Below, piece after piece: positions 13,337-30,166 of a DNA stretch of 64,000 nt (position 1 is the stretch's first letter; every line of letters starts with the position of its first letter). Origin of the DNA: an uncultured Alphaproteobacteria bacterium. Lineage in GTDB: Bacteria; Pseudomonadota; Alphaproteobacteria; HIMB59; GCA-002718135. A program made the translations under genes and the position numbers. Below the pieces are notes generated by a model. The model saw only the letters and a list, made by a program, of their open reading frames with translations, ran no database searches and had not been told where the DNA came from. The stretch covers positions 58,240 through 122,239 of the forward strand of contig CACBQR010000001.1 of NCBI GenBank assembly GCA_902541435.1, written 5' to 3'.

Positions 13337-13792
13337 ATGACAAGAAAACGTCCTGATTACACTGAAGCACGTAATTATTACATAAAAGGAGAGAGAAATG
13401 AGTACCCTACTCTTCAAGATATCGCTACAGAATTCAATTATTCTTTATCAACACTAAGAAAACAAGCAGCTAATGAAGGCTGGCTTTCAAAAAGAAAAGA
13501 AAGAATTGATCTGAAAGAAACAATAAAGATGAGAAAAGAATTTATGGGAAAAGCATCTAAGCTTACTAATGTTTCCTTCAACGCAATAAGTGCTGCAGAA
13601 TATATAATCAATAAAATTCAAGAAGAACAAAAGCAAATTGAATTAGGAATTAAAATTTTTGATGTACACATAGCTACAAAGCAAATTTGGGCTTTAAATA
13701 ATGCAATGAAACTTGTGGAAAGAGGCCAACAAACACTCGATGAGATTGAAAATGGACACATGTCTCCTATTGAAGACTTTTCTTTTTTATAA
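13337..13792 (+). CDS. HTH protein resembling phage terminase small subunit / YjcR (COG5484)-type
   Basis: N-terminal pattern RKRPDYTEARNYYIKG...TLQDIATEFNYSLSTLRKQAANEGWLSKRKE matches the HTH plus 'W..KR' signature of that family. This is recalled from memory, not searched. Confidence 0.45.
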   Translation: MTRKRPDYTEARNYYIKGERNEYPTLQDIATEFNYSLSTLRKQAANEGWLSKRKERIDLKETIKMRKEFMGKASKLTNVSFNAISAAEYIINKIQEEQKQIELGIKIFDVHIATKQIWALNNAMKLVERGQQTLDEIENGHMSPIEDFSFL

Positions 13793-14398
13793 TTTAAAAT
13801 TCTTATGAATAAATGATCTATCTTGAGGATATAAATAAGTTTCTTCAGTGAAAAATACATCTAATGGTCCTGATACGATATTGTAAATATACTCATCATT
13901 TTTTTTAAGAGTTTTCAAATGTTTGACACGTGACTTATCTGTATTCCAAAAATGGTGTAATATTTTTCCTCTTTCAAAATATAAAACTAAATGTTCCTTA
14001 AAATTATCATCAAAAATACCTTGATTTAAAGCATATCCATGAGGAATTCCGTTTTTAAAAGAACAATAAAAAGTATTTTTTACCTCACTGGTTCTATACT
14101 CCATCATATGCATTAAAGTTGTTCCATTTCTTACACCATTTTTATATTCTGCACTTTCATATTCTCTTAAACCTAAATTTAAAAAATATATTTTTGTATC
14201 TAAATGTCTGCTACAATTGATATTTTCTAAATCGTAATAAATTCCAGATTTATATTCAAAGTTAAATTTTTTATTACCTCTACCGTGTGGAGTTTTATTA
14301 TCTTTCTTGGTATCGCCAGTGTATGTAAAATCTAAAAACTGCTTATCTTTGTCATCAAGAATTCTCTTAATTACAATTTTTTCGTCATCTTTAAACAT
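13787..14398 (-). CDS. MORN-variant repeat protein (YwqK-like), paralog 1
   Basis: G-x-x-HG repeat motifs (TPHGRGNKKF, YKNGVRNGT, FKNGIPHGYA). Roughly 45% identical by eye to the 15679..16287 product, e.g. EHLVLYFERGKILHHFWNTDKSR vs EHLVLYFLNGEIVHHFWCNDKSR. Confidence 0.55.
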   Translation of the reverse strand: MFKDDEKIVIKRILDDKDKQFLDFTYTGDTKKDNKTPHGRGNKKFNFEYKSGIYYDLENINCSRHLDTKIYFLNLGLREYESAEYKNGVRNGTTLMHMMEYRTSEVKNTFYCSFKNGIPHGYALNQGIFDDNFKEHLVLYFERGKILHHFWNTDKSRVKHLKTLKKNDEYIYNIVSGPLDVFFTEETYLYPQDRSFIHKNFKL

Positions 14399-15678: not shown

Positions 15679-16287
15679 TTATTTAAGTTTAAATTTTTTG
15701 TAGTTTGTCCATGATCTATCGTGAGGAAAAATATTATCCTCATCAGTAAACCAAACCTCTAAATCAGTGCTAGTAATATTATAAATCCTGCTATCATGTT
15801 TTTTTAATTTTTTTAAATGTCTATCTCGTGATTTATCATTACACCAAAAATGATGCACTATTTCACCATTTAAAAAATATAAAACCAAGTGCTCTCTAAA
15901 ATTGGTATCATAAATACCTTGTTGTAATGCATACCCATTAATTACTCCATCTGCAAAAGTACAATGAAATAGTGTATTTTCTTCATGATGATCATCTGGT
16001 CTAAAAGCTAATGTTGCTTCTCCATGCCTTAAGCCATTTTTATAATTTGCAGTTTCATCAACTCTTATGCCTAGCCCATATAAGAATACTTGTGTGTTGA
16101 AATCATTAGTGCTTTTCAACATCTCCCAATCATATGTTATTTTTTCGTTATAGATGAATTTCTTTTTACCTTTACCGTGTGGTAAGCCAACTTTGTCTAT
16201 GTCGCCATCATATTTAAAACCCAATATATCTTTATTTTTTTTCTTAAGGATTTTAAAAACTGCATTTCTTTCTGGATCAACAACCAT
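15679..16287 (-). CDS. MORN-variant repeat protein (YwqK-like), paralog 2
   Basis: LPHGKGKKKF, YKNGLRHGEA and FADGVINGYA motifs. Paralogous to the 13787..14398 product. Confidence 0.55.
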   Translation of the reverse strand: MVVDPERNAVFKILKKKNKDILGFKYDGDIDKVGLPHGKGKKKFIYNEKITYDWEMLKSTNDFNTQVFLYGLGIRVDETANYKNGLRHGEATLAFRPDDHHEENTLFHCTFADGVINGYALQQGIYDTNFREHLVLYFLNGEIVHHFWCNDKSRDRHLKKLKKHDSRIYNITSTDLEVWFTDEDNIFPHDRSWTNYKKFKLK

Positions 16288-16424: not shown

Positions 16425-16607
16425 TCAAAGTTTTTTAAGAGCATAGTATAAAGGTCCTGCACTTAATACTAAACCTATAACAATTTTTACTACTGCGTGT
16501 CCATCAAGTCCAGTATAATAAGGGATTGTAAAAAATAGTTCCATTGCGAGATAAAGAACCCAAAATGAACCAAATAAAACAAGTAATATTTTTAATAATT
16601 TCTTCAT
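16425..16607 (-). CDS. Small two-TM membrane protein (60 aa)
   Basis: Two hydrophobic helices. It is preceded by a GAAAGGAAAAATT-ATG leader that is conserved with the repeat-peptide gene. Confidence 0.55.
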   Translation of the reverse strand: MKKLLKILLVLFGSFWVLYLAMELFFTIPYYTGLDGHAVVKIVIGLVLSAGPLYYALKKL

Positions 16608-16683
16608 AATTTTTCCTTTCGTAAAGTTTATAAATATTAAAACGTTCCTGGTTTTATTTTGTTTGAAATTAATTAAAAAAATG
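16608..16683 (-). promoter_or_regulatory. Conserved 76-nt leader/promoter element, copy 1
   Basis: About 94% identical (4 mismatches, 1 indel) to 22813..22889, whereas the downstream coding sequences are unrelated. The identity includes the SD region and a GGAAC motif. Confidence 0.6.
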
Positions 16684-16726
16684 TAAGTTTTTGAAAAAGC
16701 TTTCCCTCTTTACTAGGAATATTCAA

Positions 16727-19717
16727 TTAATTTACACCAACAATTGTATAGGGTGACCAGTAAAAAGGATGAGAATAATTGTTATCTTGTAATAGTTGAA
16801 TCTGTGACATTTTAAGTTTTTCAAAAAAGTTTTTAGCATTATTTTTAAAAAATTCTGTAGTGATCAATTCAGCCGAGTTAGTTTCCACTGCCCATTTAGT
16901 TGTGAGCATATTTTTTGATCCAGAGTAAAAAAATGATCTAGTTAAACCTGAATAATAATCACCACTTAGATCAGGAGATGCTGTATTACATGCTGATAAT
17001 ATTAATAAATTTGAATTAAATTTTTGATTTAAAATTTCTGAAGTTGTTAAATATCCATCATTAGAATTGTCTAAATTTTGAGAAAGAACAATTGCAGGCT
17101 CATTTATATTATCAACTTCATTTGCTTTTAATGCATGTGTAGCAAACATCATATATTCACTATCCATGTTCGTTGTATTTATCAGAGTTTCATTAGCTTG
17201 ATTTCCTAATAACAGAACTGTGTCATTATTTTCAAAATTTTCACTAATAAATTTAACTTCACTTTCAGTGTTAGGTAATTGAGTAAAAGTATTATCAAAA
17301 TTTGGATTCCCTACTCCAATAAATTTCTTAGCGTACTCAGTATTTTTAAGATTTTTTAATAAATAAAAAGATTCAATTGAGGGAAGATAACTGAAACCAT
17401 ATTTCTTTATAAGGAAATCTTGTTCAGAAAAATTATCTCCATTTATTTCATTATCTAATAAGCTGGCAAAAGGTATAGAAGAAATAATATCGTCAGAAAT
17501 AACAGTAATTTTATCATCAAATTGAATACTACTTTCAAAAGGCTCAATCAGAATTTTATATAAATCATAGCCAACATTAAATCGGGATATATTACTTCTA
17601 GGTTCTTCTAATAATAATCTTAAATTTTTTATTTTTAATAAAATATCATTTTTTATATTTTTTATTATTCTAAAATCCGTATTCTTTTGATCGACAAAAA
17701 GTATAATTAAATCTTCATTGTAAAAAGTATATAAAAAAATATTTTCATTTACATCAATTGCTTCTTGTATTTTCTCTAATGAATAATTGGTATTATTTAA
17801 TAAAAAATTTAATTCCTGATAATTGTCTTCTAACAGATCATTTATAGCATTTAGTTCATATGAATACTCTTCAATTTTAGACATAATATCTTTTTCTTGT
17901 TCTCTATCGATTTCATCAGCTAACTGTATTTTAGTTAAATCATTTCTTAATCCAGAAATTTGATTTCTTAATGTTTCTTTTTTTTGTAAATTATCAATGA
18001 TTTCTTCATTTTGTATATTACTTTTTACAATCATTTCTCTAATAAAATTAGAAAAATCACTACTATCTAAATATGAAATTAAATTAAATGCTGAGTTAGT
18101 ATTTACATTATTATCATTAATAATTTTTAAATAATTATAAAACCCATCCTTAAAAAATGGGTTTAAAATAACTAAATCATTTAGATTATTCTCCAATACT
18201 ACATTTAATGTTTCTTCATAAATTCTAACAGCTTCATTAATGCGATTATTAAGAAAAAAACATTTAGCTAATAAATTTTTTGATTCTAAAAGATTGATGT
18301 TATCATTTGTTAAATATTTTCTTTTAATCTCAATTGATTCCTCCATTTTTTCAATGCAAGCCTCTTTATTTTTGCTTAGAAAATATTCTTCTGAAAAGAT
18401 TTTTAAAGCTTCAGCATAGTCAATTTCTGAAGTTTTTTTTGAACCATCAAGATATTCTGAAATATATTTATCAATATCTTCATTCAAATATTGTAAGATT
18501 TTTATTTTTATTGGAACATTTCTGAAATGTAATCTTTCGAGCCCAAAAAAAGCATCATAAACATTTTTTTCTGCTAAATTAAAATATGAAATAGATTTTT
18601 GAAAGTCTCCTTTTTCAAAATAATATTTCGATATTTCAAATTGAGCAAAAGAATAATCAGCTAAAAAAACATCTTCAGGATTATTTTTATAATAATTATC
18701 TATTTTAAAAAAAACCTTATACGCTTCATTTTTTTTATTTGCATTTAAAAGTATTCTAGCTTTTTGTGAAAATAATTGCATTAAATAAGAATCTTCTCTT
18801 GCACCAGAATAATTATGAATTCTTAAAGCCTCATCTATCGACTCTATTGCTAAATTATAATTACCAGCACTCTCATATGCTTCAGCCAAAATTCCATAGT
18901 CGTAAGCTAAATTTTGTACATTCTTACCTTCTCTTATTGTTAGAAGGTTGATCACTTCATTTGCATAATCTATTGCTTTTAAATAATCATTGGCGGCATT
19001 GGCATATATCGAAGCCCAATAATAAACAAACTCATTAGGCCGAGTATTATTTATTGACTGATTATTAATATAATCAATTGTATCAATGATTTTTTCAAGA
19101 TCCTGATAATAATTTCCTGAAGAATTTAAATCAATTAATTCAAGCTGAGCATATACATTGCCGCTATCTGCTGATAATTTTAAATGTTTTTGTGCTTTAT
19201 CAAAATCATTTTCAAATACTTCTCCGTATTTATAAAAATAACCTAACTTATAATTTGCACAGCCAATATTGTTATTGCTACCAATAGTTACATATTTTTT
19301 AACTTTTTCAAAATCAACTATATCTTGATCATAATTGTCACCTATTAATCCAAAAAAATATAAATCTGCAGCATCACAAGTGGCCTCATAGTATCCCTTA
19401 TTAATAGATTTTAATAAATATTCCTCTTTGAATTTGATATCTACTTTTTCATTATAGATAACTGCTAAAATATAATATGCTTCCGCTAAATCATTTTGAT
19501 CTATTAGTTTTTTACAATCATTTTCTAAAAAATCTAAATCATAAATTGATACATCAAAACCATCATGCTGATGAGCATTTTTAATTATATTAACTGCATC
19601 CTCGCATTTGAGTTGATTAGCTCTGATATTTTTACTCGATAATAAATTAAGAGTAATTGGTACAAGTAAAATGAAAATAAATGTTTTAATAAAAAATTTT
19701 TTATATTGAACACTCAT
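16727..19717 (-). CDS. Exported Sel1/TPR-repeat protein with C-terminal CHAT (caspase-fold) protease domain
   Basis: Signal-peptide-like N-terminus (FIFILLVPITLNLLSSKNIRA-NQ) and Sel1/TPR helical repeats. The C-terminal CHAT His/Cys dyad contexts are MFATHA and LLILSACNTA. Confidence 0.8.
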   Translation of the reverse strand: MSVQYKKFFIKTFIFILLVPITLNLLSSKNIRANQLKCEDAVNIIKNAHQHDGFDVSIYDLDFLENDCKKLIDQNDLAEAYYILAVIYNEKVDIKFKEEYLLKSINKGYYEATCDAADLYFFGLIGDNYDQDIVDFEKVKKYVTIGSNNNIGCANYKLGYFYKYGEVFENDFDKAQKHLKLSADSGNVYAQLELIDLNSSGNYYQDLEKIIDTIDYINNQSINNTRPNEFVYYWASIYANAANDYLKAIDYANEVINLLTIREGKNVQNLAYDYGILAEAYESAGNYNLAIESIDEALRIHNYSGAREDSYLMQLFSQKARILLNANKKNEAYKVFFKIDNYYKNNPEDVFLADYSFAQFEISKYYFEKGDFQKSISYFNLAEKNVYDAFFGLERLHFRNVPIKIKILQYLNEDIDKYISEYLDGSKKTSEIDYAEALKIFSEEYFLSKNKEACIEKMEESIEIKRKYLTNDNINLLESKNLLAKCFFLNNRINEAVRIYEETLNVVLENNLNDLVILNPFFKDGFYNYLKIINDNNVNTNSAFNLISYLDSSDFSNFIREMIVKSNIQNEEIIDNLQKKETLRNQISGLRNDLTKIQLADEIDREQEKDIMSKIEEYSYELNAINDLLEDNYQELNFLLNNTNYSLEKIQEAIDVNENIFLYTFYNEDLIILFVDQKNTDFRIIKNIKNDILLKIKNLRLLLEEPRSNISRFNVGYDLYKILIEPFESSIQFDDKITVISDDIISSIPFASLLDNEINGDNFSEQDFLIKKYGFSYLPSIESFYLLKNLKNTEYAKKFIGVGNPNFDNTFTQLPNTESEVKFISENFENNDTVLLLGNQANETLINTTNMDSEYMMFATHALKANEVDNINEPAIVLSQNLDNSNDGYLTTSEILNQKFNSNLLILSACNTASPDLSGDYYSGLTRSFFYSGSKNMLTTKWAVETNSAELITTEFFKNNAKNFFEKLKMSQIQLLQDNNYSHPFYWSPYTIVGVN

Positions 19718-19840
19718 AATTAACGTTATTTATACAATGATTTTTTTTTTCATAACTACATTTTTCTCTATTTTTTTTGATTTTTACATAAGTTGTCATT
19801 CAATTAAATATAAAACGACTGAAAAGGTAAATTGTTTTAA

Positions 19841-21421
19841 TTAATGTGGTACAAAAATGAAATCACCTCCATCATGACCTGCTTTAAGTAAAACAGACAT
19901 TTCCGGAACTTGATCAGCATTATTGATGACGTATTTTCTAATATTAGGAAAAAGATCATCACTTAGCACAATGCTATTATTTTCTTTTAGAGTATTTATT
20001 AACGCGTTAGCAAAAACTGAATGATTATTTTCACCGGAGTCTACAGCTGGTTCATCACCGCCAGCAGATGTGATAACCACACGGGTTTTTTTTGATACTA
20101 CTTTGGTAATATCTTTAGTTAGATTTAGTTTCTGTTTACCTCTCATTAAGCTTCCAGAAAAACAGCTATCTGAAATTAAGAGGACATGTTTTGCTTTTGT
20201 AGCTTTAATATTATCAAGAATGTAGGAATTATTGATCCATTTGGATCTTTTGGTTGTGTCTGCATCTATTGGAAGCCAGTACCCTCGCTCTTCATCATTA
20301 TCAAGTTCGCCGTGTCCAGCGTAATAAATTAATAAATTATCAAAGGGTTGCATCTGACTTCTTATTTCAAAGATTGCATCTTTCATTTCATCATGTTTTT
20401 GATCAACTAAAAGAGTCACATTAAAATTATAGTTGTTTTCTAATATCTCAGCAACTTTAGTAGCATCATTAACAGCAGTATTTAGCTTTGGCAGATATTC
20501 GTAATTGTTATTACCAATTACAAGGGCATAATAATTACCAAAATTAATTTCATCTCTAAATGATTCATTCTTATTGCCTTGGACAACAACTGTTTCATTA
20601 TTTAATAAATTTTCATTATATGCGCCTAATTCTTTTAATCGTCCTATCGCATAATCACTACCAAGTTTAGCTGCTTCAGTATAAAATTTAATTGCTTCAT
20701 CTAAATCTTCATCGACACCAAGACCAAATTCGTAATGCCATGCAAGATTACCTAGGGCAAATACTTCATTAGACTCAGCTGCTTTTAATGTCCATTCTAG
20801 ACCTTTCTCGTAATCCATTTCTGTCCCTCTTCCTCCAGCATACATCCATCCAAGGTTTGCTTGTGCAATGACATTATTTAATTCTGCGCCTACTGAATAC
20901 CATTTAAAAGCTTCCTCATAATTAGACTCTGTTCCGATGCCATACATGTTATGATATGCAAATTCAGTTACAGCATAATCATAAAAATTATCATCTTCAC
21001 CTAGTTCCACAGCTATTTTAACCATTTCAAAAGATAATTTTAAATGCTCTGGTAAATTAAATATATCCTCTTCCTGTCTAACAATCTCAGATATTCTTAA
21101 ATACATATAAATAGTATTATGCAAATTATACATTGAATTAGCGTATTCAACTGAAGCAATAATATCTTGATTAGTTCCTATTCCTTTTAATAAAAATTCA
21201 GATGTATTTTCAATTCCTAAATAATCACCTTTATCTGCTAATGCTTTGTAGCACAAAAAAGCTTCAGAAAAATTTTCATCATTATAAAAAGCTACTGCTT
21301 TGTCGTTTAAGAAACCAATTGATTTATCTTCTGTACATATTTGATTAGCTATAAGTTGATTTGAAAATATTAATAAGAATAAAAAAAATAGAATTTTATA
21401 TATTTTTGCACTCACCCACAT
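19841..21421 (-). CDS. Exported Sel1-repeat protein with C-terminal caspase (peptidase C14) domain
   Basis: Signal peptide (LFFLFLLIFSNQLIA-NQ) and Sel1 repeats (AQANLGWMYAGGRGTEMDYEKGLEWTLKAA...). The C14 dyad contexts are LIYYAGHG and LLISDSCFSG. Confidence 0.85.
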   Translation of the reverse strand: MWVSAKIYKILFFLFLLIFSNQLIANQICTEDKSIGFLNDKAVAFYNDENFSEAFLCYKALADKGDYLGIENTSEFLLKGIGTNQDIIASVEYANSMYNLHNTIYMYLRISEIVRQEEDIFNLPEHLKLSFEMVKIAVELGEDDNFYDYAVTEFAYHNMYGIGTESNYEEAFKWYSVGAELNNVIAQANLGWMYAGGRGTEMDYEKGLEWTLKAAESNEVFALGNLAWHYEFGLGVDEDLDEAIKFYTEAAKLGSDYAIGRLKELGAYNENLLNNETVVVQGNKNESFRDEINFGNYYALVIGNNNYEYLPKLNTAVNDATKVAEILENNYNFNVTLLVDQKHDEMKDAIFEIRSQMQPFDNLLIYYAGHGELDNDEERGYWLPIDADTTKRSKWINNSYILDNIKATKAKHVLLISDSCFSGSLMRGKQKLNLTKDITKVVSKKTRVVITSAGGDEPAVDSGENNHSVFANALINTLKENNSIVLSDDLFPNIRKYVINNADQVPEMSVLLKAGHDGGDFIFVPH

Positions 21422-22496
21422 CTTGTTTCTTATTATCGTTTAAATCGATACATTGTTTTTCTGTAACACCATCTTCATTATTATCATAATTATATTGTAA
21501 AACCCATTTACCATTCTTTTTTATCCAGGCTATAATAAGTTCATCTTTTAAATTTTTATTTTCATCATAAAAATATTCATCATAGTAACCATCTTTATTA
21601 TAATCTACATCTTCCCTCTCAAAATAATTATCGCAATCCATATCCCATTTACGAAGTGTATAATTTTCTTTTTCTTCTATTTTTCCTTCATTCGCATACT
21701 TACAATTATTTGAATTAGTTATTTTTGGTATAACTGGTGGATTATTTAAAAATGCTACTACTTCATCTGCCGAAACAGCATAATTAAGACCAGGTGAGTC
21801 AGTTCTTTTGAATGAATTAATTCCAATAATTTTTCCATCATTTGATATTAAAGGGCCTCCAGAATTACCAGGATTTATTGGTGTTTGAGTTTGAACAATA
21901 TTAGCTGTATGTTCATACCATTTATAATTATCTCTTAATTGACTTACAAACCCTCTAGTGTACGTACAGTTTTCTCCCTGTGGATTTCCTATCGCATGCA
22001 CATCATCACCAATTAAAACATTATTCATATCAGTTTCAATCGAATAGGGTTCAACATTATAATTTTTTGATTTAATTTTATTTCTTTCAAGCTTAATCAA
22101 TGCAAGATCTTTTTTAATTATATAACTCACTACTTCAGCTCTAAAAATTGTATCACTTGCGTTTGGATCATATTTTTCACTAGTACAAAAACCTACCATA
22201 ATTAAAGGGCTAACCCCTTCATCATTTGAGATCACATGATAATTAGTTATTATTAATCCATCATTACCAATAAGAGCACCTGATCCACTGCTTGAAGGTG
22301 TTAATATTATTGCTGTTTTTGGGGCATTAGTCTTATATATATTAGATCCAATACTGCGAGTTGTAATATCACTTTCTAAATTACTTTTAATTTCAGATAA
22401 CTCGGTGTGTAATTTTAATTCTAAATAACTAGGTATTTCACCTTGGGCAAAAACACTACTGGATAAAAATATTATAAAAAGTATTAACCTAAACAT
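21396..22496 (-). CDS. Exported trypsin-like serine protease (S1 family) with Asp-rich C-terminal domain
   Basis: Signal peptide (ILFIIFLSSSVFA-QG) and catalytic triad contexts TNYHV, DLALIKL and GNSGGPL. The C-terminus has two DxNxDG calcium-loop-like motifs (DYNKDG, DNNEDG). Overlaps the caspase gene by 26 nt. Confidence 0.85.
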   Translation of the reverse strand: MFRLILFIIFLSSSVFAQGEIPSYLELKLHTELSEIKSNLESDITTRSIGSNIYKTNAPKTAIILTPSSSGSGALIGNDGLIITNYHVISNDEGVSPLIMVGFCTSEKYDPNASDTIFRAEVVSYIIKKDLALIKLERNKIKSKNYNVEPYSIETDMNNVLIGDDVHAIGNPQGENCTYTRGFVSQLRDNYKWYEHTANIVQTQTPINPGNSGGPLISNDGKIIGINSFKRTDSPGLNYAVSADEVVAFLNNPPVIPKITNSNNCKYANEGKIEEKENYTLRKWDMDCDNYFEREDVDYNKDGYYDEYFYDENKNLKDELIIAWIKKNGKWVLQYNYDNNEDGVTEKQCIDLNDNKKQDVGECKNI

Positions 22497-22534: not shown

Positions 22535-22563
22535 AAAAAGCCACTTTAAAAGTGGCTTTTTTT
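22535..22563 (-). terminator. Intrinsic (bidirectional-looking) terminator after the repeat-peptide gene
   Basis: AAAAAGCCAC-TTTAAAA-GTGGCTTTTTTT: a GC core stem flanked by A and T tracts, 19 nt downstream of the stop at 22582. Confidence 0.6.
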
Positions 22564-22581: not shown

Positions 22582-22812
22582 TTAATTAAGGTGGAAATCA
22601 TAACCTCCAAAGATGTTTGGTTGTGACCAACCATTAACGTCACCGTGGTAGTTATAACCACCAAAAATATTTGGTTGTGACCAGCCATTTACATCACCGT
22701 GGTAATTATAACCGCCAAAGATGTTTGGTTGTGACCAAGTGTAAGCATTAGCTGAAGATCCAGCAGCTAGAAGTGCCATAGTTAAAGTTATAGTTTTAAT
22801 TAAGTTTTTCAT
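22582..22812 (-). CDS. Exported tandem-repeat peptide (76 aa): signal peptide plus 3 x WSQPNIFGGY(N/D)(Y/F)H... repeats
   Basis: The likely start is the ATG at 22812, preceded by GAAAGGAAAATT; the listed ORF start at 22845 lacks an SD. Signal peptide MKNLIKTITLTMALLAAGSSANA, followed by two identical 18-aa units and one 15-aa variant. Confidence 0.7.
   Translation of the reverse strand: MKNLIKTITLTMALLAAGSSANAYTWSQPNIFGGYNYHGDVNGWSQPNIFGGYNYHGDVNGWSQPNIFGGYDFHLN
22585..22737 (-). repeat. Tandem 54-bp coding repeat (2 full units plus 1 truncated unit)
   Basis: The units encode identical peptides but differ at synonymous sites, e.g. CCA AAC ATC vs CCA AAT ATT for P-N-I. Confidence 0.85.
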
Positions 22813-22889
22813 AATTTTCCTTTCGTAAAGTTTATAAATATTCAAACGCTCCTGTTTTTATTTTGTTTGAGATTAATTAAAAAAAAATG
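22813..22889 (-). promoter_or_regulatory. Conserved 76-nt leader/promoter element, copy 2
   Basis: Near-identical to 16608..16683. It starts right after the upstream terminator T-tract. Confidence 0.6.
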
Positions 22890-22914
22890 CACGGTAAGGA
22901 GGAAAACCGTGCAT
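22879..22914 (-). terminator. Intrinsic terminator downstream of the sigma/anti-sigma operon
   Basis: On the minus strand: ATGCACGG-TTTTCCTCCTTA-CCGTGCAT followed by a T9 run. Confidence 0.65.
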
Positions 22915-22991
22915 TAACATAAGGAGTGAACCATAGCTTTGAGAACGATTAGCTATGATACTTAGTAAAACGTGTAAGGTAAAAAAATGTT

Positions 22992-23765
22992 TTAATTTTT
23001 TGGAAATAGATAAATAAAATTATAATCACTAATAATTTTGTAGTCACCAGTAATATCAATTGGTTCGCTTCCAATCTGTATTTCAATATGATGGAGATCC
23101 CATTTGTTTGAATCTGTGGAGCCACAATAAATATAATAATTATCACTGGTATTTTCTGTTTTATTAGAGATTTTTATTTGTTTTCTATCTAATTCTCGGG
23201 GACACTCTAACTCTTTATTTGAATCTGAACTTCTGGTTTGAGTTAAAGGTACTGAAACAGCAGAATAATTGTTTCTTTCTAGTTTTAATTCAACAGATTG
23301 AACTGTATTTCCTTCCATAAATAAATTTGGATATTCATCAACTAACACTTCTGAAACTTGTAAATACTGATCATTACTCATCATTTTACCCGTTTCTATG
23401 ATTTGTTGATTACCTATAAAAAATATTCCAACCGCAACAGCAAATAACACAGCTTTTGATTGAATAGGTATTACAAGAATAGGTTCAAAAATCTTTGAAA
23501 TAAAATTTTGATTTTTTTCTTTAGTATTTACAGATGTATCAATCTTACTCTGCAAGTCGTCAAATTTTTGACTAAACTTAGAAATTGAATCATCAATTTG
23601 GCTTGTATTAAAATTTTGATCAATGGAATTATCTAAATTTTTAAATTCTGATAATTTTTTTTGAGCATCTTGGTTATCATTAAGATATTGCTCAAATTCT
23701 AATCTTTCTTTTTCATTTAAAAGACCATCAATATAGTCAAAATATGTTGAGTCGCTTATTTTCAT
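22992..23765 (-). CDS. Putative membrane-spanning anti-sigma factor
   Basis: 4-nt overlap with the upstream ECF sigma gene. It has an N-terminal anti-sigma-like helix pattern (YIDGLLNEKERLEFEQYLNDNQDAQKKL), a single TM (AVLFAVAVGIFFIG) and an extracytoplasmic C-terminal domain. Confidence 0.6.
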   Translation of the reverse strand: MKISDSTYFDYIDGLLNEKERLEFEQYLNDNQDAQKKLSEFKNLDNSIDQNFNTSQIDDSISKFSQKFDDLQSKIDTSVNTKEKNQNFISKIFEPILVIPIQSKAVLFAVAVGIFFIGNQQIIETGKMMSNDQYLQVSEVLVDEYPNLFMEGNTVQSVELKLERNNYSAVSVPLTQTRSSDSNKELECPRELDRKQIKISNKTENTSDNYYIYCGSTDSNKWDLHHIEIQIGSEPIDITGDYKIISDYNFIYLFPKN

Positions 23766-24340
23766 AGTTTTATGTTATGTTTTTGACAAATATCATACAT
23801 CTTTAAACGTATAGAAGTCATTTTTGTTCTAATTGTATTAGGATTAATGTTTAATATATCCCCTATTTCTCTAAATTTCTTATTTTTTAAGTAATATAAA
23901 CTTACGATTTCAAAATCTTCCTCAGGCAATTCTTTTTGAAGAATAGCTGTGAGATTAGTATATGAGCCTTCATCTTGACTATTTTCTAATGCTTCATCTG
24001 CTCTTGGTCTATTATCTACTTCAAGAGAGAAATCATCTGTTGTTTGAGTTTTTCGTCGTATTTCTTTTCTTTGGTAATCTATAATAATATTTTTTATAGA
24101 TGTTTTAAAGTACCCCTCTAAAGTACCTTCGCTTAGAATTTTTTTTAAACTTTCAACGTCATTTTCAAATCTATTAAAAAATTTAACTAACATTTCACTA
24201 ACTATATCTTTTGCAATATCTTGAAGATTTTTTGTTTCTGATAATTGAAATTTCACTCTTTTGTACGTAAACCAAATAAGCTCATCTTTAATTTTTTCAA
24301 ATTCCTTACCTACATCTAGATGAAATTTATTAGTATTCAT
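23762..24340 (-). CDS. ECF-type sigma-70 family RNA polymerase sigma factor
   Basis: About 190 aa, with a region-2-like segment and a region-4 HTH (FREIGDILNINPNTIRTKMTSIRLKM). Confidence 0.8.
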   Translation of the reverse strand: MNTNKFHLDVGKEFEKIKDELIWFTYKRVKFQLSETKNLQDIAKDIVSEMLVKFFNRFENDVESLKKILSEGTLEGYFKTSIKNIIIDYQRKEIRRKTQTTDDFSLEVDNRPRADEALENSQDEGSYTNLTAILQKELPEEDFEIVSLYYLKNKKFREIGDILNINPNTIRTKMTSIRLKMYDICQKHNIKL

Positions 24341-24418
24341 AAATTAGGAAATAAATATCAGAAAATATTCAAACAATAAAACATTCTAAGCGTCTTATAG
24401 GCAAAGAAAGGATTTATT

Positions 24419-24694
24419 ATGTTTGTAATTTTTGGAACAACAAGTAGAAAAATTGAAGAAGAAAAAGGTTATTTTGTATGCCCTCAATGTCAGGTTTTAA
24501 GACCTTATGTTTTAGCGAGTATGCAAACTTGGTTTACATTATTTTTTATCCCCCTTTTTCCCGTAGGAGAAAAAAATAATCGACATGTAGAATGCAAAGA
24601 ATGCTCAACAACTTTTTATCCAAGAGTGCTTGATTTCAATCGATATACGGTTGATGGACAAATTCTAGGAGAAGAAAGCCAAGTTACAACATGA
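24419..24694 (+). CDS. Small zinc-ribbon protein with hydrophobic segment
   Basis: CPQC ... CKEC cysteine pairs and a WFTLFFIPLFPV hydrophobic stretch. Confidence 0.55.
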   Translation: MFVIFGTTSRKIEEEKGYFVCPQCQVLRPYVLASMQTWFTLFFIPLFPVGEKNNRHVECKECSTTFYPRVLDFNRYTVDGQILGEESQVTT

Positions 24695-24754: not shown

Positions 24755-27700
24755 ATGAAATGTCCCAAGTGTGGAAGTTCAATGGTTTTAAAAACTGCTG
24801 AATATGGGCCATGGAAAGGTAATGAATTTTATGGATGTTCAAAATATCCTAAATGCAAAGGCTTAGTTAATGTTAGCGATAAAAAGATAAATAATGAAAG
24901 TAGAAAAACAAAAGATAAAATTGAAGAAGTTATGACAATTGCTAAAGGCTATGAAGATCCAATACCCTATTCTGAAGCAAAAGAATATAGTGAGGAAGAG
25001 CAAGATCTTACTAAAAAGTCATTAGAGACTATAAGAGAAAAACTATTAGATGTTTCAGGAAGAAATCCACTTATTTCATTTAGACATTCAGAGAAAAAAA
25101 GAGATCAGGTAAGGTTTATTGATGAGGTTTTGGATATTCTTCATGAAAAACTTAATGAAGGAAAAAGTTTAAATATTATTTCGTTGCCTGAACCAGAAGG
25201 TGAGCCCGAAGATGAAAATGATGCAAGATTTCAATTAGAGCTAAACATTTCTAAGGACGCAGATGAAAAGTTCATTGAAGAAATGAAAAAATTACCGGAA
25301 GATGATGATGGATTATCAAAAAGAGCACTTAAAATTCTTCGAGATTTAAAAGATAGAGTCAGAGAAAAATTAGGTATGCCTCCAAGATTAGCAAGGGAAA
25401 TTCTTTCAAGAAAAGAATATGCGATAAGATCTGATTTAATACCTAATTATGAAATGCATGTTGTGAACGATGATAATGAAGATACTGAAAGATGGAATGA
25501 TACAAATTTACAAACACTTCTTTTTAGTGACGAATTAGATAGAAATTTAAAATCTGTTTGGAATAAATATAAGCAAGGATACGAAGAAAAAGGAATTAAT
25601 ACACTTCATTTAATATTAGGTTTTCTTGAATGGTATGAAAGTGATTACTCAGATAAAAAAATTGTTTCACCATTACTAATTCAACCTGTTGATATTGAAA
25701 GAGAGAAAACATTTAAAGGTCATAAATATAAGATTAAGACAACAGGTGACCAAGAGGAAATTAATCTAAATTTAACAAAAAGATTAAGTGATGATTTTGG
25801 TATTTTGCTTCCTGAAATAGAAGAAGATGAAACTCCACAAAGTTATTTAAATAGAGTTCAAGAAAAAATTCAATCTAAATCAAATTGGCAAGTTAAAAAT
25901 TATCTTACATTAGGCCATCTAGATTATGCAAATATTTTAATGTATCAAGATTTAGATTCATCAAAGTGGCCAAATGAAGAAGATTTATTGGGTAGTGAAA
26001 TAATTAATGACGTTCTTTTTGGTAATGAAAATATGTCAGATAGTTATCAAGATGACTATGAAATTGATGATGACAACATTGAAAAAATAGCGCCATATCT
26101 TGTTTTGGATGCTGACTCTTCACAACACAGCGCAGTTATAGATGTTTTACAGAATAAAAACTTAGCCTTAAAAGGTCCTCCTGGCACAGGAAAATCTCAG
26201 ACAATAACTAATATTGTTGGTGCTGCTTTAGCACAAGGTAAAAAAATTCTATTTGTGTCAGCAAAATCAGCAGCATTAGATGTTGTTTATAGTAGATTAC
26301 AAAATATTGGATTAGGTGAGTTTTGTTTAAAATTACATGGTGTAAATGCAAAGAAGAAAGAATTAATTGAATCATTAAAAAAAAGATTAGAAAAAGAAGA
26401 AAGTCATTTAAAACCTTCAATTAAAGAAAATGCAGATCAATTAAAAAAATATAAAAAACAATTAAATACATATGTAAATGATCTTAATTCTACGTTTGGT
26501 AAAATTGGAAAAACTATTCAAGAAATTTTTTGGTCTTCAATTAAATATGATCAGGAATGTGATGAATTAAATATTTCACAAGATTTAAAAAATATTAATT
26601 TCACAAACTGTAAAGATTTAACAAGTGTTCAAGTAGATGATGCATGCAATAAATTAGATAATCTAAAAGAAATCATACAAAGTTTTCACAAAAAATACTC
26701 CAGAATAGAGGATCATCCTTTTTATGGAGTGCAAAAATTTAGCTTAAATAAGTTTGATTTAGATGATCTAGAAGATAATCTTAAATCAGTTAGTAATTAT
26801 ATAAAAATCATTATTGAAAAAATAAACAAGTTTAGTGAAATTAATAACTTTAAAACTGACTTAAACGATTTTAATTTAGAAAACATAAAAATTTTTAGAA
26901 GAAGTTTAGATCTCAGTGTCCCAGATAACTTATCTGATAGATTATTACATTTTGCTAAAGAAGAAAAAATAAACCAATTACATGAAGATACAATACAACA
27001 TTTCAAGAAATCAGTTGAGCTGAAAGAAAATATTGAACATAAATATTTTGATACAAAAATTATCCATGAGGAAATCGAAAATTTATCTAAATTAATTGCA
27101 CAACTTTATAATGTAATAATCTTTTATGATGGAAAGTTAAACAGTACACAATTATCAGACATTAAGCAGCAGATAAAAAATTATGATGAGAAATATAATT
27201 ACTCTATTGAAACTTTAATTAGTTTTATTCAAAATTTATCTTCTTGTTTTGATATTAAGGATAACTACTCAAAAGAGAATATTACTAAATTTATTAGTTT
27301 AATAATTTTTTTAAATCAATTATCTCAAGACGATCTTAGTTTTAATTATGAAAATTTAGTGTCACAGGATAACTTTGATTATTTAAATAAGTTATTTATA
27401 CAAATAGAAAATACAGAAAAAAACAACAAAGAAATAATAACAAAATATAAAATTGAAGAATACGAAAACGTATCAGAATTAAGAGATTTACGACATATCT
27501 TTAATCAAGCAGGTTTTTTCGCTTTTTTAAATAGTAAATATAAAGAAGCAAAAAATAAATTTAATAATTTACATAAAGATTCTCAAAATAGAAAATTGTC
27601 TAATCAACATATGGTCAATGAGATTAAAAAGATTGAAGCATACATTGATGAAAAGAATAGAATCAATAAAGACACAAAAATAAATGAAATACTCTCATTA

Positions 27701-30166
27701 TCTTACAATGAAATTCTTTTAAATATAGATTCATTGAAGCGTTTAGTTGCTTTTGGACGATCAATTAGAGAAAAATATTACAATTATAATATATTTGATG
27801 AAAAAATAAGAACCACACTATTATTCAGTGATAAATCAAAAATTTCAAATATACTCAAATTAATTAAAGAGAAAAATTATCTCAATCTAGACTTATCTAA
27901 AAAACTTGAAGATATTGATCACGAGAATATTTTAGATAAAAAAAATGAAATAACTGAAAAAAGTGGTGAAATTTTCCATTTACTTGAAGAATTAAGTAAA
28001 TTTAAATTGAATAAAAATACAAACTTTGCAGATATTTATAGTTTAAATAATTCCTTAAAAGAACTTATTGAACAAAACACGATAGTAGAAACTGAAAGTG
28101 AATTTCTAGAAAAAATATCCTTAAATTTAAAATTTGTAAATAAATCTGAATTAGAAATATATGAACAAAGTGTTTCTTTTTTGAAAACAATTTCTAAATT
28201 TCCATCTGAAATTTATAAATTTATTTTAGATGGTGAAATAGAAAATAGAATTAACTTGTTAAAAGATTTTACCAATGATTTATCAAATCATGTTGATAGT
28301 TTGTTTGAAAATTATCATAAAATAATAAGAATTGGAGCGATTGCAGAAAATAATTTTTTAAAAGATAATAAAATTAATTATGCGAATTTAAATGTAATAA
28401 AAGCGTTATTTGATGAAAAAAATAACTCCTTCAATGAATTAAATTCTTGGTTGTCTTATTTAAATGCAAAATCTGGCACTGATGGCGATAATATAAATCT
28501 TTTAGTAGAACTTTCTGAAAAAAATTTTGAATTAACCAATTATTTTAGCAAAGCATATAAAAAAGTTTTGTATCAATCTCTCATGAAAAAAATATTCACT
28601 GAATATCCAAGTATTCAAAATTATACAGGATTTAATATTGAGGCTGACAGAAAAAGATTTCAAGACTTAGATACAAATATAAATTATTTACATACTCAGG
28701 ATTTAATCAACTCTTTAATGAAAAGAAAACCTCCTCAGGGTGTGAGAAGAGGTTTAGTAAGAGATTATACCGAAATGGGTTTAATTAATCATTTAACACA
28801 AGGGGAAAGACGTAAAGTACCTTCGATTAGAAAGTTACTTACGAGAGCTGGTGATGCAATTAGAGAGCTAAAACCTTTTTTTATGATGTCTCCCCATTCT
28901 GTTGCAAGATTTTTGCCGCCTAAAGGGATTGAGTTTGATTTAATATTAATTGATGAAGCTTCACAATTAAAGCCAGAATTTGCATTGGGTGCATTAGCAA
29001 GAGCTAAAAGAGCAGCAATAATGGGCGATCCTATGCAGATGCCACCCTCTTCTACATTTGAAAGACAGATAGATATTGATGAGGATGAAGAAGTGCAAAC
29101 AATTGACGAAAAATCAATTCTAGATGTCGCATTAACAAAATTTGAAGCAAGAAGAGATTTAAAATGGCATTATAGATCAAGAGATGAGTCATTAATCGCA
29201 TTTTCAAATAAAGAATTTTATAATGATAGGCTAATAATATTTCCTAATTCATTTATTGATACAGATCATTTAGGAATTAAAATTAAAAAAGTTGATGCCT
29301 TTTATCAAGGACAAACAAACAGAGATGAAGCCATAGAAGTAAAAAATAGCATTTGTGAATTCATGGAAAAGTATCCTGAAAAGAGTTGTTTAGCAGTTAC
29401 TATGAATATTTATCAATCAGAACTGATTCAAAATCTCATGGAAGAGGAAGAAAGAAGTAACAAAGTAGTTAGTGATTATATTAACAAATGGGAAAATACT
29501 CTAGAACCATTCACAGTTAAAAACTTAGAGCGTGTTCAAGGTGACGAGCGTGATTGTATATTTATTTCAACATTATATGGTCCCGCAGGTCCAAATTTAC
29601 CTACTGCTCAAAGATTTGGTCCAATAACAACACAATATGGTTACAGAAGATTAAATGTTTTATTTACAAGAGCAAAAGAAAGAGTTGAAGTTATCACTTC
29701 AATGAATCCAAATGATATTAAATTTGATGAAGGTTCTTCAATGGGTGGAGCTAAGTATGGACAGAAAGTTTTAAGTGATTATTTAAATTACGCTCATACT
29801 GGAAAACTGTATTCAGGAGAAGTTACTGATCGAGAAGTAGGAAGTGATTTTCAGTTATTTGTTGGAAATAAGTTAAAAGAAAGAGGATATGAAGTACAAC
29901 AAGAAATAGGTGTTAAAGGATTTTTCATTGATATTGGTGTTAAACATCCAAAATATCCAAATAAATATTTAATTGGAGTTGAGTGTGATGGAGCGGCATA
30001 TCATTCAAGTAAGTCAGCAAGAGATAGGGATAGATTGAGGCAAGATATTTTAGAAGGACTTGGATGGGATATATATAGAATTTGGTCAACAGATTGGTTT
30101 AATAATCCAGAAAACGAAATTAACAAATTAGTAGACTATATTGAGAACAAGGTTCAACAAACTTAA
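24755..30166 (+). CDS. Large SF1 helicase-nuclease (Hhe-like): topoisomerase-type C4 zinc finger, DUF4011-like region, Upf1/DNA2-like AAA_11/AAA_12 helicase, C-terminal Vsr/DUF559-like endonuclease fold
   Basis: N-terminus CPKCGSSMVLK...YGCSKYPKCKG; DUF4011-like LLDVSGRNPLISFRHS; Walker A GPPGTGKSQT (aa 474); Walker B LILIDEASQL (aa about 1400). Also motif VQGDERD and the C-terminal ECDGAAYHSSKSARDRDRLRQDILEGLGWDIYRIWSTDW. Confidence 0.85.
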   Translation: MKCPKCGSSMVLKTAEYGPWKGNEFYGCSKYPKCKGLVNVSDKKINNESRKTKDKIEEVMTIAKGYEDPIPYSEAKEYSEEEQDLTKKSLETIREKLLDVSGRNPLISFRHSEKKRDQVRFIDEVLDILHEKLNEGKSLNIISLPEPEGEPEDENDARFQLELNISKDADEKFIEEMKKLPEDDDGLSKRALKILRDLKDRVREKLGMPPRLAREILSRKEYAIRSDLIPNYEMHVVNDDNEDTERWNDTNLQTLLFSDELDRNLKSVWNKYKQGYEEKGINTLHLILGFLEWYESDYSDKKIVSPLLIQPVDIEREKTFKGHKYKIKTTGDQEEINLNLTKRLSDDFGILLPEIEEDETPQSYLNRVQEKIQSKSNWQVKNYLTLGHLDYANILMYQDLDSSKWPNEEDLLGSEIINDVLFGNENMSDSYQDDYEIDDDNIEKIAPYLVLDADSSQHSAVIDVLQNKNLALKGPPGTGKSQTITNIVGAALAQGKKILFVSAKSAALDVVYSRLQNIGLGEFCLKLHGVNAKKKELIESLKKRLEKEESHLKPSIKENADQLKKYKKQLNTYVNDLNSTFGKIGKTIQEIFWSSIKYDQECDELNISQDLKNINFTNCKDLTSVQVDDACNKLDNLKEIIQSFHKKYSRIEDHPFYGVQKFSLNKFDLDDLEDNLKSVSNYIKIIIEKINKFSEINNFKTDLNDFNLENIKIFRRSLDLSVPDNLSDRLLHFAKEEKINQLHEDTIQHFKKSVELKENIEHKYFDTKIIHEEIENLSKLIAQLYNVIIFYDGKLNSTQLSDIKQQIKNYDEKYNYSIETLISFIQNLSSCFDIKDNYSKENITKFISLIIFLNQLSQDDLSFNYENLVSQDNFDYLNKLFIQIENTEKNNKEIITKYKIEEYENVSELRDLRHIFNQAGFFAFLNSKYKEAKNKFNNLHKDSQNRKLSNQHMVNEIKKIEAYIDEKNRINKDTKINEILSLSYNEILLNIDSLKRLVAFGRSIREKYYNYNIFDEKIRTTLLFSDKSKISNILKLIKEKNYLNLDLSKKLEDIDHENILDKKNEITEKSGEIFHLLEELSKFKLNKNTNFADIYSLNNSLKELIEQNTIVETESEFLEKISLNLKFVNKSELEIYEQSVSFLKTISKFPSEIYKFILDGEIENRINLLKDFTNDLSNHVDSLFENYHKIIRIGAIAENNFLKDNKINYANLNVIKALFDEKNNSFNELNSWLSYLNAKSGTDGDNINLLVELSEKNFELTNYFSKAYKKVLYQSLMKKIFTEYPSIQNYTGFNIEADRKRFQDLDTNINYLHTQDLINSLMKRKPPQGVRRGLVRDYTEMGLINHLTQGERRKVPSIRKLLTRAGDAIRELKPFFMMSPHSVARFLPPKGIEFDLILIDEASQLKPEFALGALARAKRAAIMGDPMQMPPSSTFERQIDIDEDEEVQTIDEKSILDVALTKFEARRDLKWHYRSRDESLIAFSNKEFYNDRLIIFPNSFIDTDHLGIKIKKVDAFYQGQTNRDEAIEVKNSICEFMEKYPEKSCLAVTMNIYQSELIQNLMEEEERSNKVVSDYINKWENTLEPFTVKNLERVQGDERDCIFISTLYGPAGPNLPTAQRFGPITTQYGYRRLNVLFTRAKERVEVITSMNPNDIKFDEGSSMGGAKYGQKVLSDYLNYAHTGKLYSGEVTDREVGSDFQLFVGNKLKERGYEVQQEIGVKGFFIDIGVKHPKYPNKYLIGVECDGAAYHSSKSARDRDRLRQDILEGLGWDIYRIWSTDWFNNPENEINKLVDYIENKVQQT

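Follow-up and report, generated by a model that had tools for sequence, protein, structure and literature searches.

The peptide gene, its repeat units and its family

In the 64,000-nt stretch of DNA analysed here (the window; contig CACBQR010000001.1, positions 58,240 to 122,239 of the forward strand), which comes from an uncultured alphaproteobacterium of the HIMB59 lineage and has a G+C content of 27.8%, a short gene for an exported repeat peptide lies between the genes of a putative membrane anti-sigma factor and of an HtrA-like serine protease. Its open reading frame (ORF) occupies 22582-22812 of the minus strand, from an ATG start at 22812 to a TAA stop at 22582-22584, and is supported by the ORF list, its translation, its relatives and a set of intact orthologues. 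The product of 76 amino acids (aa) reads MKNLIKTITLTMALLAAGSSANA-YT-(WSQPNIFGGYNYHGDVNG)x2-WSQPNIFGGYDFHLN, i.e. a signal peptide of 23 aa followed by 2.8 units of WSQPNIFGGYNYHGDVNG. On the same strand, the predicted Sec-type signal peptide MKNLIKTITLTMALLAAGSSANA is encoded at 22744-22812, with cleavage at ANA/YT; translation places unit 1, WSQPNIFGGYNYHGDVNG, at 22684-22737, unit 2 at 22630-22683 and the truncated unit 3, WSQPNIFGGYDFHLN, at 22585-22629, and Tandem Repeats Finder reports an array at 22591-22738 with a period of 54 nt, 2.7 copies and 85% matches. The n-, h- and c-regions and the AxA motif of the signal peptide, as read from the sequence, are kept across the alignment of the family described below. 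The mature peptide has 53 aa, with no Cys, Lys or Arg, and a lipoprotein could be rejected because the lipobox Cys is absent. We regard the product as a small protein with predicted export through the Sec pathway; the paired cysteines of some relatives (see below) imply an oxidising compartment outside the cytoplasm.

Translation and codon comparison show that units 1 and 2 are identical in amino acids and differ at 7 of their 54 nucleotides, all of them third positions and all synonymous. Counted by the method of Nei and Gojobori, changes are found at 7 of 10.7 synonymous sites and at 0 of 43.3 non-synonymous sites, and in simulations the probability that the peptide remains unchanged after 7 random substitutions ranged from 5e-6 (no bias) to 5e-5 (transition weight 4). 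Seven orthologous metagenomic loci (L026-L032) carry an intact peptide ORF, free of frameshifts and stops, and the ratio of non-synonymous to synonymous substitution rates (dN/dS) between the peptide gene and these orthologues is about 0.06-0.2. The codon-position pattern, together with the intact orthologues, leads us to reject an ORF arisen by chance as well as a repeat of non-coding DNA. When 79 genes of the family are considered, the cores of adjacent units use different codons at 38-45% of the codon pairs that encode an identical residue. This rejects concerted evolution or recent duplication, and because of it we conclude that old duplications held constant at the peptide level are the rule across the family, not a peculiarity of the window gene. 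Strong purifying selection acts on the peptide. An earlier note, made from the letters of this DNA, had described an exported three-unit peptide kept identical despite synonymous divergence and had argued for purifying selection rather than a recent DNA duplication; both statements hold, the count between units that it proposed gives the figures above, and where it had allowed for frameshifted or stop-containing homologous loci, all seven orthologues are intact.

A word-indexed search brought 61 close relatives of the peptide. In the comparison of orthologous loci, close relatives whose flanking DNA is 97-99% identical differ in copy number (2 or 3 units). The search with a hidden Markov model (HMM) of 1.84 billion representatives was more productive, since it gave 509 clusters (at 50% identity) with E <= 1e-3, 169 of them with E <= 1e-10. 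Family members are mostly 56-260 aa long, begin with a signal peptide and contain 1-7 units (mode 2) with a period of 16-21 aa; the unit consensus is [ST]-S-x-P-N-[IV]-F-G-G-[YQ]-[DN]-[YF], in which the residue after the invariant Asn is Ile or Val in 88% of units, and the linkers between units vary in length and sequence and show no conserved cleavage motif. The window peptide has what characterises the family, namely three tandem 18-aa units matching the consensus and a predicted Sec-type signal peptide. Matches in named genomes come from Pelagibacteraceae and 'Alphaproteobacteria' single-cell genomes (26-31% GC), which hold the named loci closest to the window peptide, and from Planctomycetota/Pirellulales, a deltaproteobacterium and Binatia, so that the phyla holding the family span a GC content of 26% to 69%. 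Matches in Proteus and Providencia are doubtful two-motif proteins devoid of signal peptides. The earlier note had proposed a survey of homologues with their copy numbers and neighbouring genes, and these 509 clusters of one to seven units, together with the sigma/protease or PrsW contexts of the AT-rich loci described further on, are its outcome.

The family went unrecognised by the resources that we consulted. Pfam, NCBIfam and PADLOC scans of the peptide and 28 relatives assigned no family and returned compositional noise (e.g. Nucleoporin_FG, E = 0.001-0.06), a PDB sequence search with the family profile found no matching chain, and a full-text literature search for 'PNIFGG' found no paper with the motif. 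A tblastn search of relatives against phage and plasmid collections gave no match, and a scan of IMG/VR gave a single weak locus, of the doubtful Proteus/Providencia type. By its sequence, then, the peptide belongs to a large and strongly conserved repeat family that is undescribed in the libraries and literature searched. Two architectures within the family may be mentioned. Three representatives (P0091, P0153 and P0154) have PN(G/A/V)FGGYNY repeats fused to a common C-terminal domain of ~270 aa with no Pfam or PDB match. At locus L034 (2298-7933), a 95-aa member is accompanied by a conserved downstream gene of 192 aa; in one contig the neighbour of this pair is an integrase/AlpA/DUF3987 element and in a second contig citrate synthase, which suggests that the pair is mobile.

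Some information on the fold is provided by cysteines. Among 200 family proteins, 29 carry two Cys in the first or last unit, never in middle units, and their positions relative to the invariant Asn are -3/+7 in 36 units and -5/+9 in 5 units; the constant sum of these positions is what is expected of cross-strand partners in a strand-loop-strand centred on I-F-G. For AlphaFold modelling we used, in place of the window peptide, a six-unit relative (P0070), the model of which has a predicted local distance difference test score (pLDDT) of 92-96 over the repeats and a predicted template-modelling score (pTM) of 0.62. It consists of twelve strands of 4-6 residues that alternate with PNIFGG-type loops and Gly-rich linkers. 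From the Cys pairs and from this model, the family unit is predicted to be a hairpin-like strand-loop-strand with the conserved PNIFGG loop at its tip; the units of the model pack in antiparallel fashion, and a parallel beta-solenoid is not what it displays. Being short and polar, the predicted strands could not span a membrane, and an outer-membrane strand protein dependent on the beta-barrel assembly machinery is rejected, the strands having 4-6 residues and the C-terminal residue being mostly Asn or Arg. When the P0070 model is compared to the PDB with Foldseek, the matches are weak and all of them are antiparallel meanders or barrels (YD-repeat shells, CPAP G-box, OspA, fatty-acid-binding protein, streptavidin); the best match, from a viral structure set, is a small predicted beta-barrel annotated YfaZ (TM-score 0.77 normalised to the target, root-mean-square deviation 2.9 A). 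RHS/YD-repeat shells and the CPAP G-box, which head the PDB matches at E 0.02 or worse and TM-score < 0.3, do share with our family beta-hairpin repeats of ~20 aa with a Tyr-Asp/Asn motif. However, the proteins of the window family are tiny and free-standing, and the RHS_repeat profile matched neither 5 relatives at E <= 10 nor 23 relatives at 0.01.

Promoter, leader and terminator

Immediately upstream of the gene is a promoter of the type read by extracytoplasmic function (ECF) sigma factors, AAACAAAATAAAAACAGGAGCGTT (22845-22868, minus strand), which was identified by pattern search and in orthologues; it has a -35 block AAAC, a 16-nt spacer and a -10 block CGTT, and it ends 32 nt before the ATG. 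Between the two lies a conserved 5' leader with the Shine-Dalgarno sequence AAAGGAAAA (22813-22844, minus strand), defined by the invariant blocks in an alignment of paralogous and orthologous leaders. Downstream, an intrinsic terminator, found by folding and in orthologues, consists of a hairpin of 12 pairs followed by a T-run (22535-22561, minus strand; -14 kcal/mol, z = -3.7). It is conserved in orthologues, and analogous hairpins stand 3' of every SAR11-type homologue examined. The stop codon of the peptide gene is 85 nt upstream of the start of the trypsin-like protease gene (22496), and we found no ECF-type site between the terminator and that gene, so that read-through of the terminator is the likely source of protease transcripts. 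The self-contained arrangement of leader, ORF and terminator just upstream of protease genes that the earlier note had outlined is confirmed, and its idea of a leaky terminator appears reasonable as a means of protease expression; it had also noticed that the leader is conserved and missed that this comprises an ECF promoter.

The leader is not confined to the peptide gene. About 70 nt upstream of the peptide ATG recur almost unchanged at 16608-16690, before a 60-aa ORF with two predicted transmembrane (TM) segments (16425-16607), and in L026; this second copy of promoter and leader (site at 16641-16664, whole unit at 16425-16690, minus strand), located by pattern search and alignment and kept in L026, would drive the 60-aa ORF. 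The pattern AAAC-N15-17-CGTY occurs seven times in the window. Five sites with a spacer of exactly 16 nt fall within 781 nt of intergenic DNA of the cluster, where ~0.025 would be expected, and each points at a downstream gene: the peptide gene (22845-22868), the 60-aa ORF (16641-16664), the gene of a TPR-CHAT protease (19814-19837), a hairpin element (22969-22992) and, on the plus strand, a Zn-ribbon/helicase pair (24371-24394). The last of these, also kept in L028-L030, precedes the Zn-ribbon gene (24419-24694) and that of an Hhe-like helicase (24755-30166). L026, a divergent orthologue, has a changed spacer but keeps the -35 and -10 blocks and some of the 5' untranslated region (5'UTR) unaltered. 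Moreover, conservation over the 190 nt that precede the peptide gene far exceeds that of its synonymous sites, with differences of 1-3% versus 17-31% for L028, L029 and L032, and of 19% versus 81% for L026.

The same arrangement is found with another motif. Loci bearing a different ECF sigma factor (L001, L008, L011, L036 and L037) have GAAT-N16-CGTY before the peptide gene and several of its neighbours, and in L036 such sites also precede the sigma gene itself and a helicase gene. As a further test, an ECF-like site was sought 24-44 nt upstream of the peptide start in 80 additional metagenomic loci: it was present in 11 of 12 sigma-bearing loci, in none of 11 with the sigma-less context and in 1 of 10 with a high GC content. 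A scan for Sigma-70 promoters was uninformative in such AT-rich DNA (52 sites found versus 59 expected). Judging from these patterns, the conserved leader is an ECF-type promoter (AAAC-N16-CGTT) followed by a 5'UTR; and because this promoter recurs in the cluster and tracks the sigma-bearing loci, the peptide is a predicted direct output of the ECF sigma module, i.e. a member of the regulon of the adjacent sigma factor.

Two side observations relate to this regulon. Between the anti-sigma stop and the peptide promoter (22876-22992, minus strand), downstream of a second AAAC-N16-CGTT come two hairpins (-23.6 kcal/mol, z = -5.8) and then a T9 run; in L026 both sides of the first stem have changed in a compensatory manner (ATAGCT/AGCTAT to ATAGTT/AACTAT). 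Shine-Dalgarno sequences have their complement in two parts of the element, CACUCCUUAU and a CCUCC loop, and in L036 the similar CACTCCTTA is found downstream of an ECF-type site; a search of Rfam over 16.3-24.8 kb of the window returned sub-threshold noise. The element may represent a small RNA of ~80 nt under ECF control, or be no more than the terminator of the sigma operon. The second observation concerns L001 (5168-8735), from a Pelagibacteraceae single-cell genome, where each of four distinct small exported peptides is provided with a GAATAA-N-CGTY site of its own. They include a further tandem-repeat peptide, (K/E)YNP(F/W)TGEW (7688-7903), and the sigma regulon of this locus appears to be a battery of small secreted peptides.

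Neighbouring genes and genomic context

The sigma factor is encoded at 23762-24340 (minus strand) and matches TIGR02937, sigma70-ECF, with 65 bits for a cut-off of 42.9, as well as Sigma70_r4_2. Its stop codon is overlapped by the start of the putative membrane anti-sigma gene (22992-23765, minus strand), whose product has an anti-sigma-like N-terminus and one TM segment. On the other side of the peptide gene are three protease genes, also on the minus strand, whose products all have N-terminal hydrophobic, signal-like segments and catalytic motifs visible in the sequence. The first is the exported HtrA-like/trypsin-like serine protease (21396-22496; Trypsin_2, 8e-25; degP_htrA_DO, 4e-29, partial), in which the His, Asp and Ser motifs are visible and the protease domain alone matches (residues about 66-250 of 366); no PDZ domain was found in the Pfam and NCBIfam scans. 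In place of a PDZ, the C-terminus (21396-21700) is a region rich in Asp, Asn, Gly and Tyr (DVDYNKDGYYDEYFYDENKN...) that resembles calcium-binding repeats, and the homologues in L001 and L036 have similar D-x-D-x-D-G runs. The second protease, exported and with Sel1 repeats, is caspase-like (19841-21421), identified by its Peptidase_C14 domain and by its His (YAGHG) and Cys (DSCFSG) motifs. The third is the TPR-CHAT protease (16727-19717; CHAT, 1e-40; TPR_12), which has the ECF-type site at 19814-19837 upstream of its gene. The 60-aa ORF comes next, at the same position in L026 as in the window, and its product might be a partner or an immunity-like protein. The order common to L026-L032 is divergent Zn-ribbon, sigma, anti-sigma, peptide, trypsin-like, Sel1-caspase, TPR-CHAT and 60-aa ORF, and in all orthologues the peptide gene stands directly between the anti-sigma and HtrA-like genes.

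The peptide locus lies between a phage-type integrase gene (11308-12366, minus strand) with a SIR2-family gene (12519-13253, plus strand), i.e. at 11.3-13.3 kb, and the helicase gene at 24.8-30.2 kb, whose product of 1803 aa matches the defence models Hhe and PDC-S37. Within the ~11-34 kb region some parts have a GC content as low as 0.24-0.25, and the whole suggests an integrated defence island. In L036 an ECF-type site is directly upstream of a similar helicase; judged from the promoter pattern, a known defence gene may be under the control of an envelope sigma factor. PADLOC itself had no match for the peptide, the sigma and anti-sigma factors or the CHAT protein, and gave generic domain matches for the trypsin-like and caspase-like proteins. 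Just downstream of the protease cluster, two minus-strand genes (13787-14398 and 15679-16287) code for paralogous proteins of ~200 aa with a weak MORN-like match and long near-identical stretches, e.g. HLVLYF..G.I.HHFW..DKSR..HLK.LKK.D..IYNI.

To see how far this context extends in the family, we surveyed 32 AT-rich metagenomic loci of at least 3 kb. Every one of them falls into one of two contexts, both of which hold envelope proteases. In 21 of the 32 there are sigma, anti-sigma, trypsin-like, CHAT or caspase genes, and no sigma-bearing locus type for which the flanking sequence is long enough lacks the trypsin-like gene. The other 11 have a CII-like regulator, a PrsW membrane protease, two pentameric ligand-gated ion channels (pLGIC) and an amine oxidase; one of these also has a weak caspase match, and both gene sets are present in L008 and L011. 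In the PrsW-type context (L009 3353-9776, L012, L014, L045 and others), the two pLGIC homologues and the flavin amine oxidase are transcribed divergently from the peptide gene, upstream of which an inverted repeat (AATCGAAAT...TTCGATT) takes the place of the ECF site. Sigma/protease neighbours are thus missing from 11 of the 32 AT-rich loci, as they are from practically all loci of high GC content; in AT-rich lineages, marine and freshwater, the association of the peptide with the sigma/protease module is conserved.

A possible role for the peptide

The explanation that we propose is a sigma-driven, exported hairpin-repeat peptide of a periplasmic-protease module, the loops of which serve as a protease ligand; we consider it about evenly poised between right and wrong. 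The sigma factor, encoded ~1 kb upstream, would read the AAAC-N16-CGTT promoter and so bring about transcription of the peptide gene. A strong Shine-Dalgarno sequence would drive translation, the intrinsic terminator would end most of the peptide transcripts, and read-through would probably provide the mRNAs of the HtrA-like and caspase-like proteases. The same promoter type would co-drive the TPR-CHAT gene, the gene of the 60-aa membrane protein and the Zn-ribbon/Hhe helicase pair. The small peptide would then be the abundantly made product of a module of ECF sigma/anti-sigma factors and periplasmic proteases, set inside an integrase-bordered defence island. In the periplasm, its identical loops might act as a multivalent ligand of the co-regulated proteases, be it as substrate, as pseudo-substrate/inhibitor or as activator. 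HtrA-family proteases prefer aliphatic P1 residues. The most likely partner of the loops would be the HtrA-like enzyme, because the Ile/Val of the loop fits this preference and because it is the most consistent protease across locus types. Loop binding would tune proteolysis, possibly including cleavage of the anti-sigma factor. One may go further and imagine a sigma-induced multivalent ligand that brings together or occupies the HtrA-like, Sel1-caspase or TPR-CHAT protein, with feedback on anti-sigma cleavage, so that the whole would be a peptide-gated switch for a phage-defence island; in a variant, peptide freed on lysis would be a danger signal to kin cells. This extension is speculative, and we give it a low probability.

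Several points weigh against our explanation. The protease-ligand step is drawn from adjacency, co-regulation and the Ile/Val residue of the loop, and some relatives carry Ser, Ala or Gly at that very position. The AlphaFold model of the window peptide itself is of low confidence (pLDDT 61; PNIFGG in loops between short strands), and a Foldseek search with it gave meaningless matches. We found no ECF-type site upstream of the sigma gene itself in the window. The product of 22992-23765 is taken to be a membrane anti-sigma factor by its position and sequence features, the match to an anti-sigma model being weak (NF052375, E = 0.15). Lastly, Planctomycetota and other high-GC loci have no conserved neighbours around the gene, from which it follows that the core function of the family cannot depend on the protease set.

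Known systems offer partial parallels. In the sigmaE-RseA-DegS system of E. coli, an ECF sigma factor is paired with a membrane anti-sigma factor, and the HtrA-family site-1 protease is activated by aromatic peptides of outer-membrane proteins (OMPs). The window resembles it in that an ECF sigma gene and an overlapping membrane anti-sigma gene adjoin that of an exported HtrA-family protease, that an aromatic-rich exported peptide is part of the circuit, and that a possible sigma-dependent small RNA is encoded nearby. However, the protease of the window has an Asp-rich C-terminal region instead of a PDZ sensor domain, its peptide would be the product of a dedicated gene and an output of the sigma factor rather than a by-product of OMP misfolding, and the locus, which is part of a mobile defence island, includes caspase-like and CHAT proteases as well. 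Another parallel is provided by DdvS/DdvA of Myxococcus xanthus: according to the abstract of that study (PMC11506125), an ECF sigma factor and a transmembrane anti-sigma factor with a periplasmic TPR-CHAT part control a CBASS/CRISPR defence island. The combination of ECF sigma/anti-sigma factors with a periplasm-facing TPR-CHAT, and in the window a defence gene (the Hhe helicase) behind the same promoter type, is common to the two systems; as far as the abstract describes DdvS/DdvA, the window differs in that its TPR-CHAT is a separate protein with His and Cys motifs and in that trypsin-like and caspase-like proteases are present too, and a small repeat peptide is not mentioned in that abstract. 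For the ligand step, an analogy might be drawn with multi-headed inhibitors such as Bowman-Birk proteins and ecotin, which could resemble the peptide in having repeated, exposed and conserved hairpin loops, disulfide-closed in some relatives, in the periplasm beside a serine protease; this is no more than an analogy, and no similarity of sequence or fold was detected.

Other explanations of the peptide must be weighed. The one that survives best, though we still judge it improbable, is that of a general periplasmic housekeeping mini-protein, for instance a binder of an envelope component, whose link to sigma factor and proteases would be regulatory, with no direct protease interaction. ECF regulons commonly include envelope proteins, the family is widespread in phyla where the gene has no conserved protease or sigma neighbours, and 11 AT-rich loci have the CII-like regulator, PrsW, pLGIC channels and amine oxidase as neighbours instead. 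But envelope proteases occur in both contexts of the AT-rich loci, and the fixed place of the gene between those of the anti-sigma factor and the HtrA-like protease in all orthologues is not what such a role would lead one to expect.

Another possibility, slightly more improbable, is a self-assembling structural peptide, i.e. a functional amyloid or an oligomeric beta-barrel or sheet that would build or reinforce an envelope or surface layer upon activation of the sigma factor. The earlier note had seen in the repeats a likeness to amyloid or beta-solenoid subunits, and part of this stands: the unit is predicted to be a strand-loop-strand, and the peptide shares with curli CsgA and functional amyloids a small size, Sec export and imperfect tandem strand-loop-strand units (~18-23 aa in this comparison, 16-21 aa across the family) rich in Gly, Asn and the aromatic residues Tyr and Phe. 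The monocistronic, strongly terminated unit and its strong ribosome-binding site suggest high expression; two- and three-unit peptides could, by oligomerising, complete an assembly such as the 12-strand antiparallel one modelled for the six-unit relative, and two fibril-forming single-layer sheets, the CPAP G-box and OspA, are among the weak structural matches. The other part is not supported, since the predicted topology is antiparallel rather than that of a parallel solenoid and since curli-type nucleator and secretion genes (CsgB/E/F/G) were not among the neighbours scanned; neither the window peptide nor 28 relatives matched the CsgA repeat consensus or Curlin_rpt of Pfam. Furthermore, conservation is concentrated in the loop and not in the strands, which is more in line with a binding surface than with a packing core, and the locus has no outer-membrane export route for a 53-aa peptide.

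Distinctly improbable is a precursor of the kind known for ribosomally synthesised and post-translationally modified peptides (RiPPs), with several cores that the neighbouring proteases would cut apart to free bioactive 18-aa peptides. This was in essence the operon of precursor peptide and processing enzymes suggested by the earlier note, and it has some appeal: as in multi-core precursors (e.g. of the cyanobactin PatE type), near-identical units follow each other in one small ORF, directly upstream of three proteases with intact catalytic motifs, and the intervening terminator would permit a high ratio of peptide to enzyme. It was not upheld, however. The N-terminus is a Sec signal peptide and not a leader peptide; scans of the neighbours show no modification or maturation enzymes and no dedicated exporter or transporter; the linkers, with a period of 16-21 aa, vary and lack conserved cleavage or recognition sites; and the conserved part is a structural loop. 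The Cys staples and the AlphaFold model point to a folded multi-hairpin protein rather than to a string of cores, and many members of the family have no protease neighbours. Orthocaspases cut after Arg or Lys, as stated in the abstract of PMC6426788, and the mature peptide offers neither for a cleavage of that type. Least probable of all is a membrane-active toxic effector (bacteriocin-like, or a periplasmic abortive-infection peptide) with the 60-aa two-TM protein as immunity partner, which could be imagined from the promoter and leader that this protein's ORF shares with the peptide gene in the window and in L026, from a small membrane ORF 3' of the peptide gene in L001, from the location in a defence island beside Hhe and SIR2 and from the Ile-Phe exposed at the hairpin tips, but which is contradicted by a polar, non-cationic peptide with strands too short to span a membrane, by high-GC and PrsW-type loci with no conserved small TM partner and by selection that is purifying rather than diversifying.

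The kinds of component that we describe (ECF sigma module, exported repeat protein, defence island) are all known, and in the papers searched we found no report of this ECF regulon for SAR11-type bacteria. These bacteria carry very few sigma factors and are known for minimal regulation, and our search of the literature on SAR11 together with metacaspases, ECF sigma factors or hypervariable regions found nothing that describes such a sigma/protease module. Beyond the window, a large family with a clear structural unit is now defined, as 509 clusters across phyla, and it provides a natural case of tandem units that remain identical as peptide at a nearly saturated divergence of their DNA, which is the mark of a functional epitope present in several copies. 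For SAR11-like bacteria, the locus would amount to a complete and compact ECF regulon with a promoter motif, small exported peptides, three periplasmic proteases, a membrane protein, a possible small RNA and a defence helicase. As this predicted regulon lies on a mobile defence island, the idea that phage defence may be controlled by a trigger at the envelope becomes directly testable.

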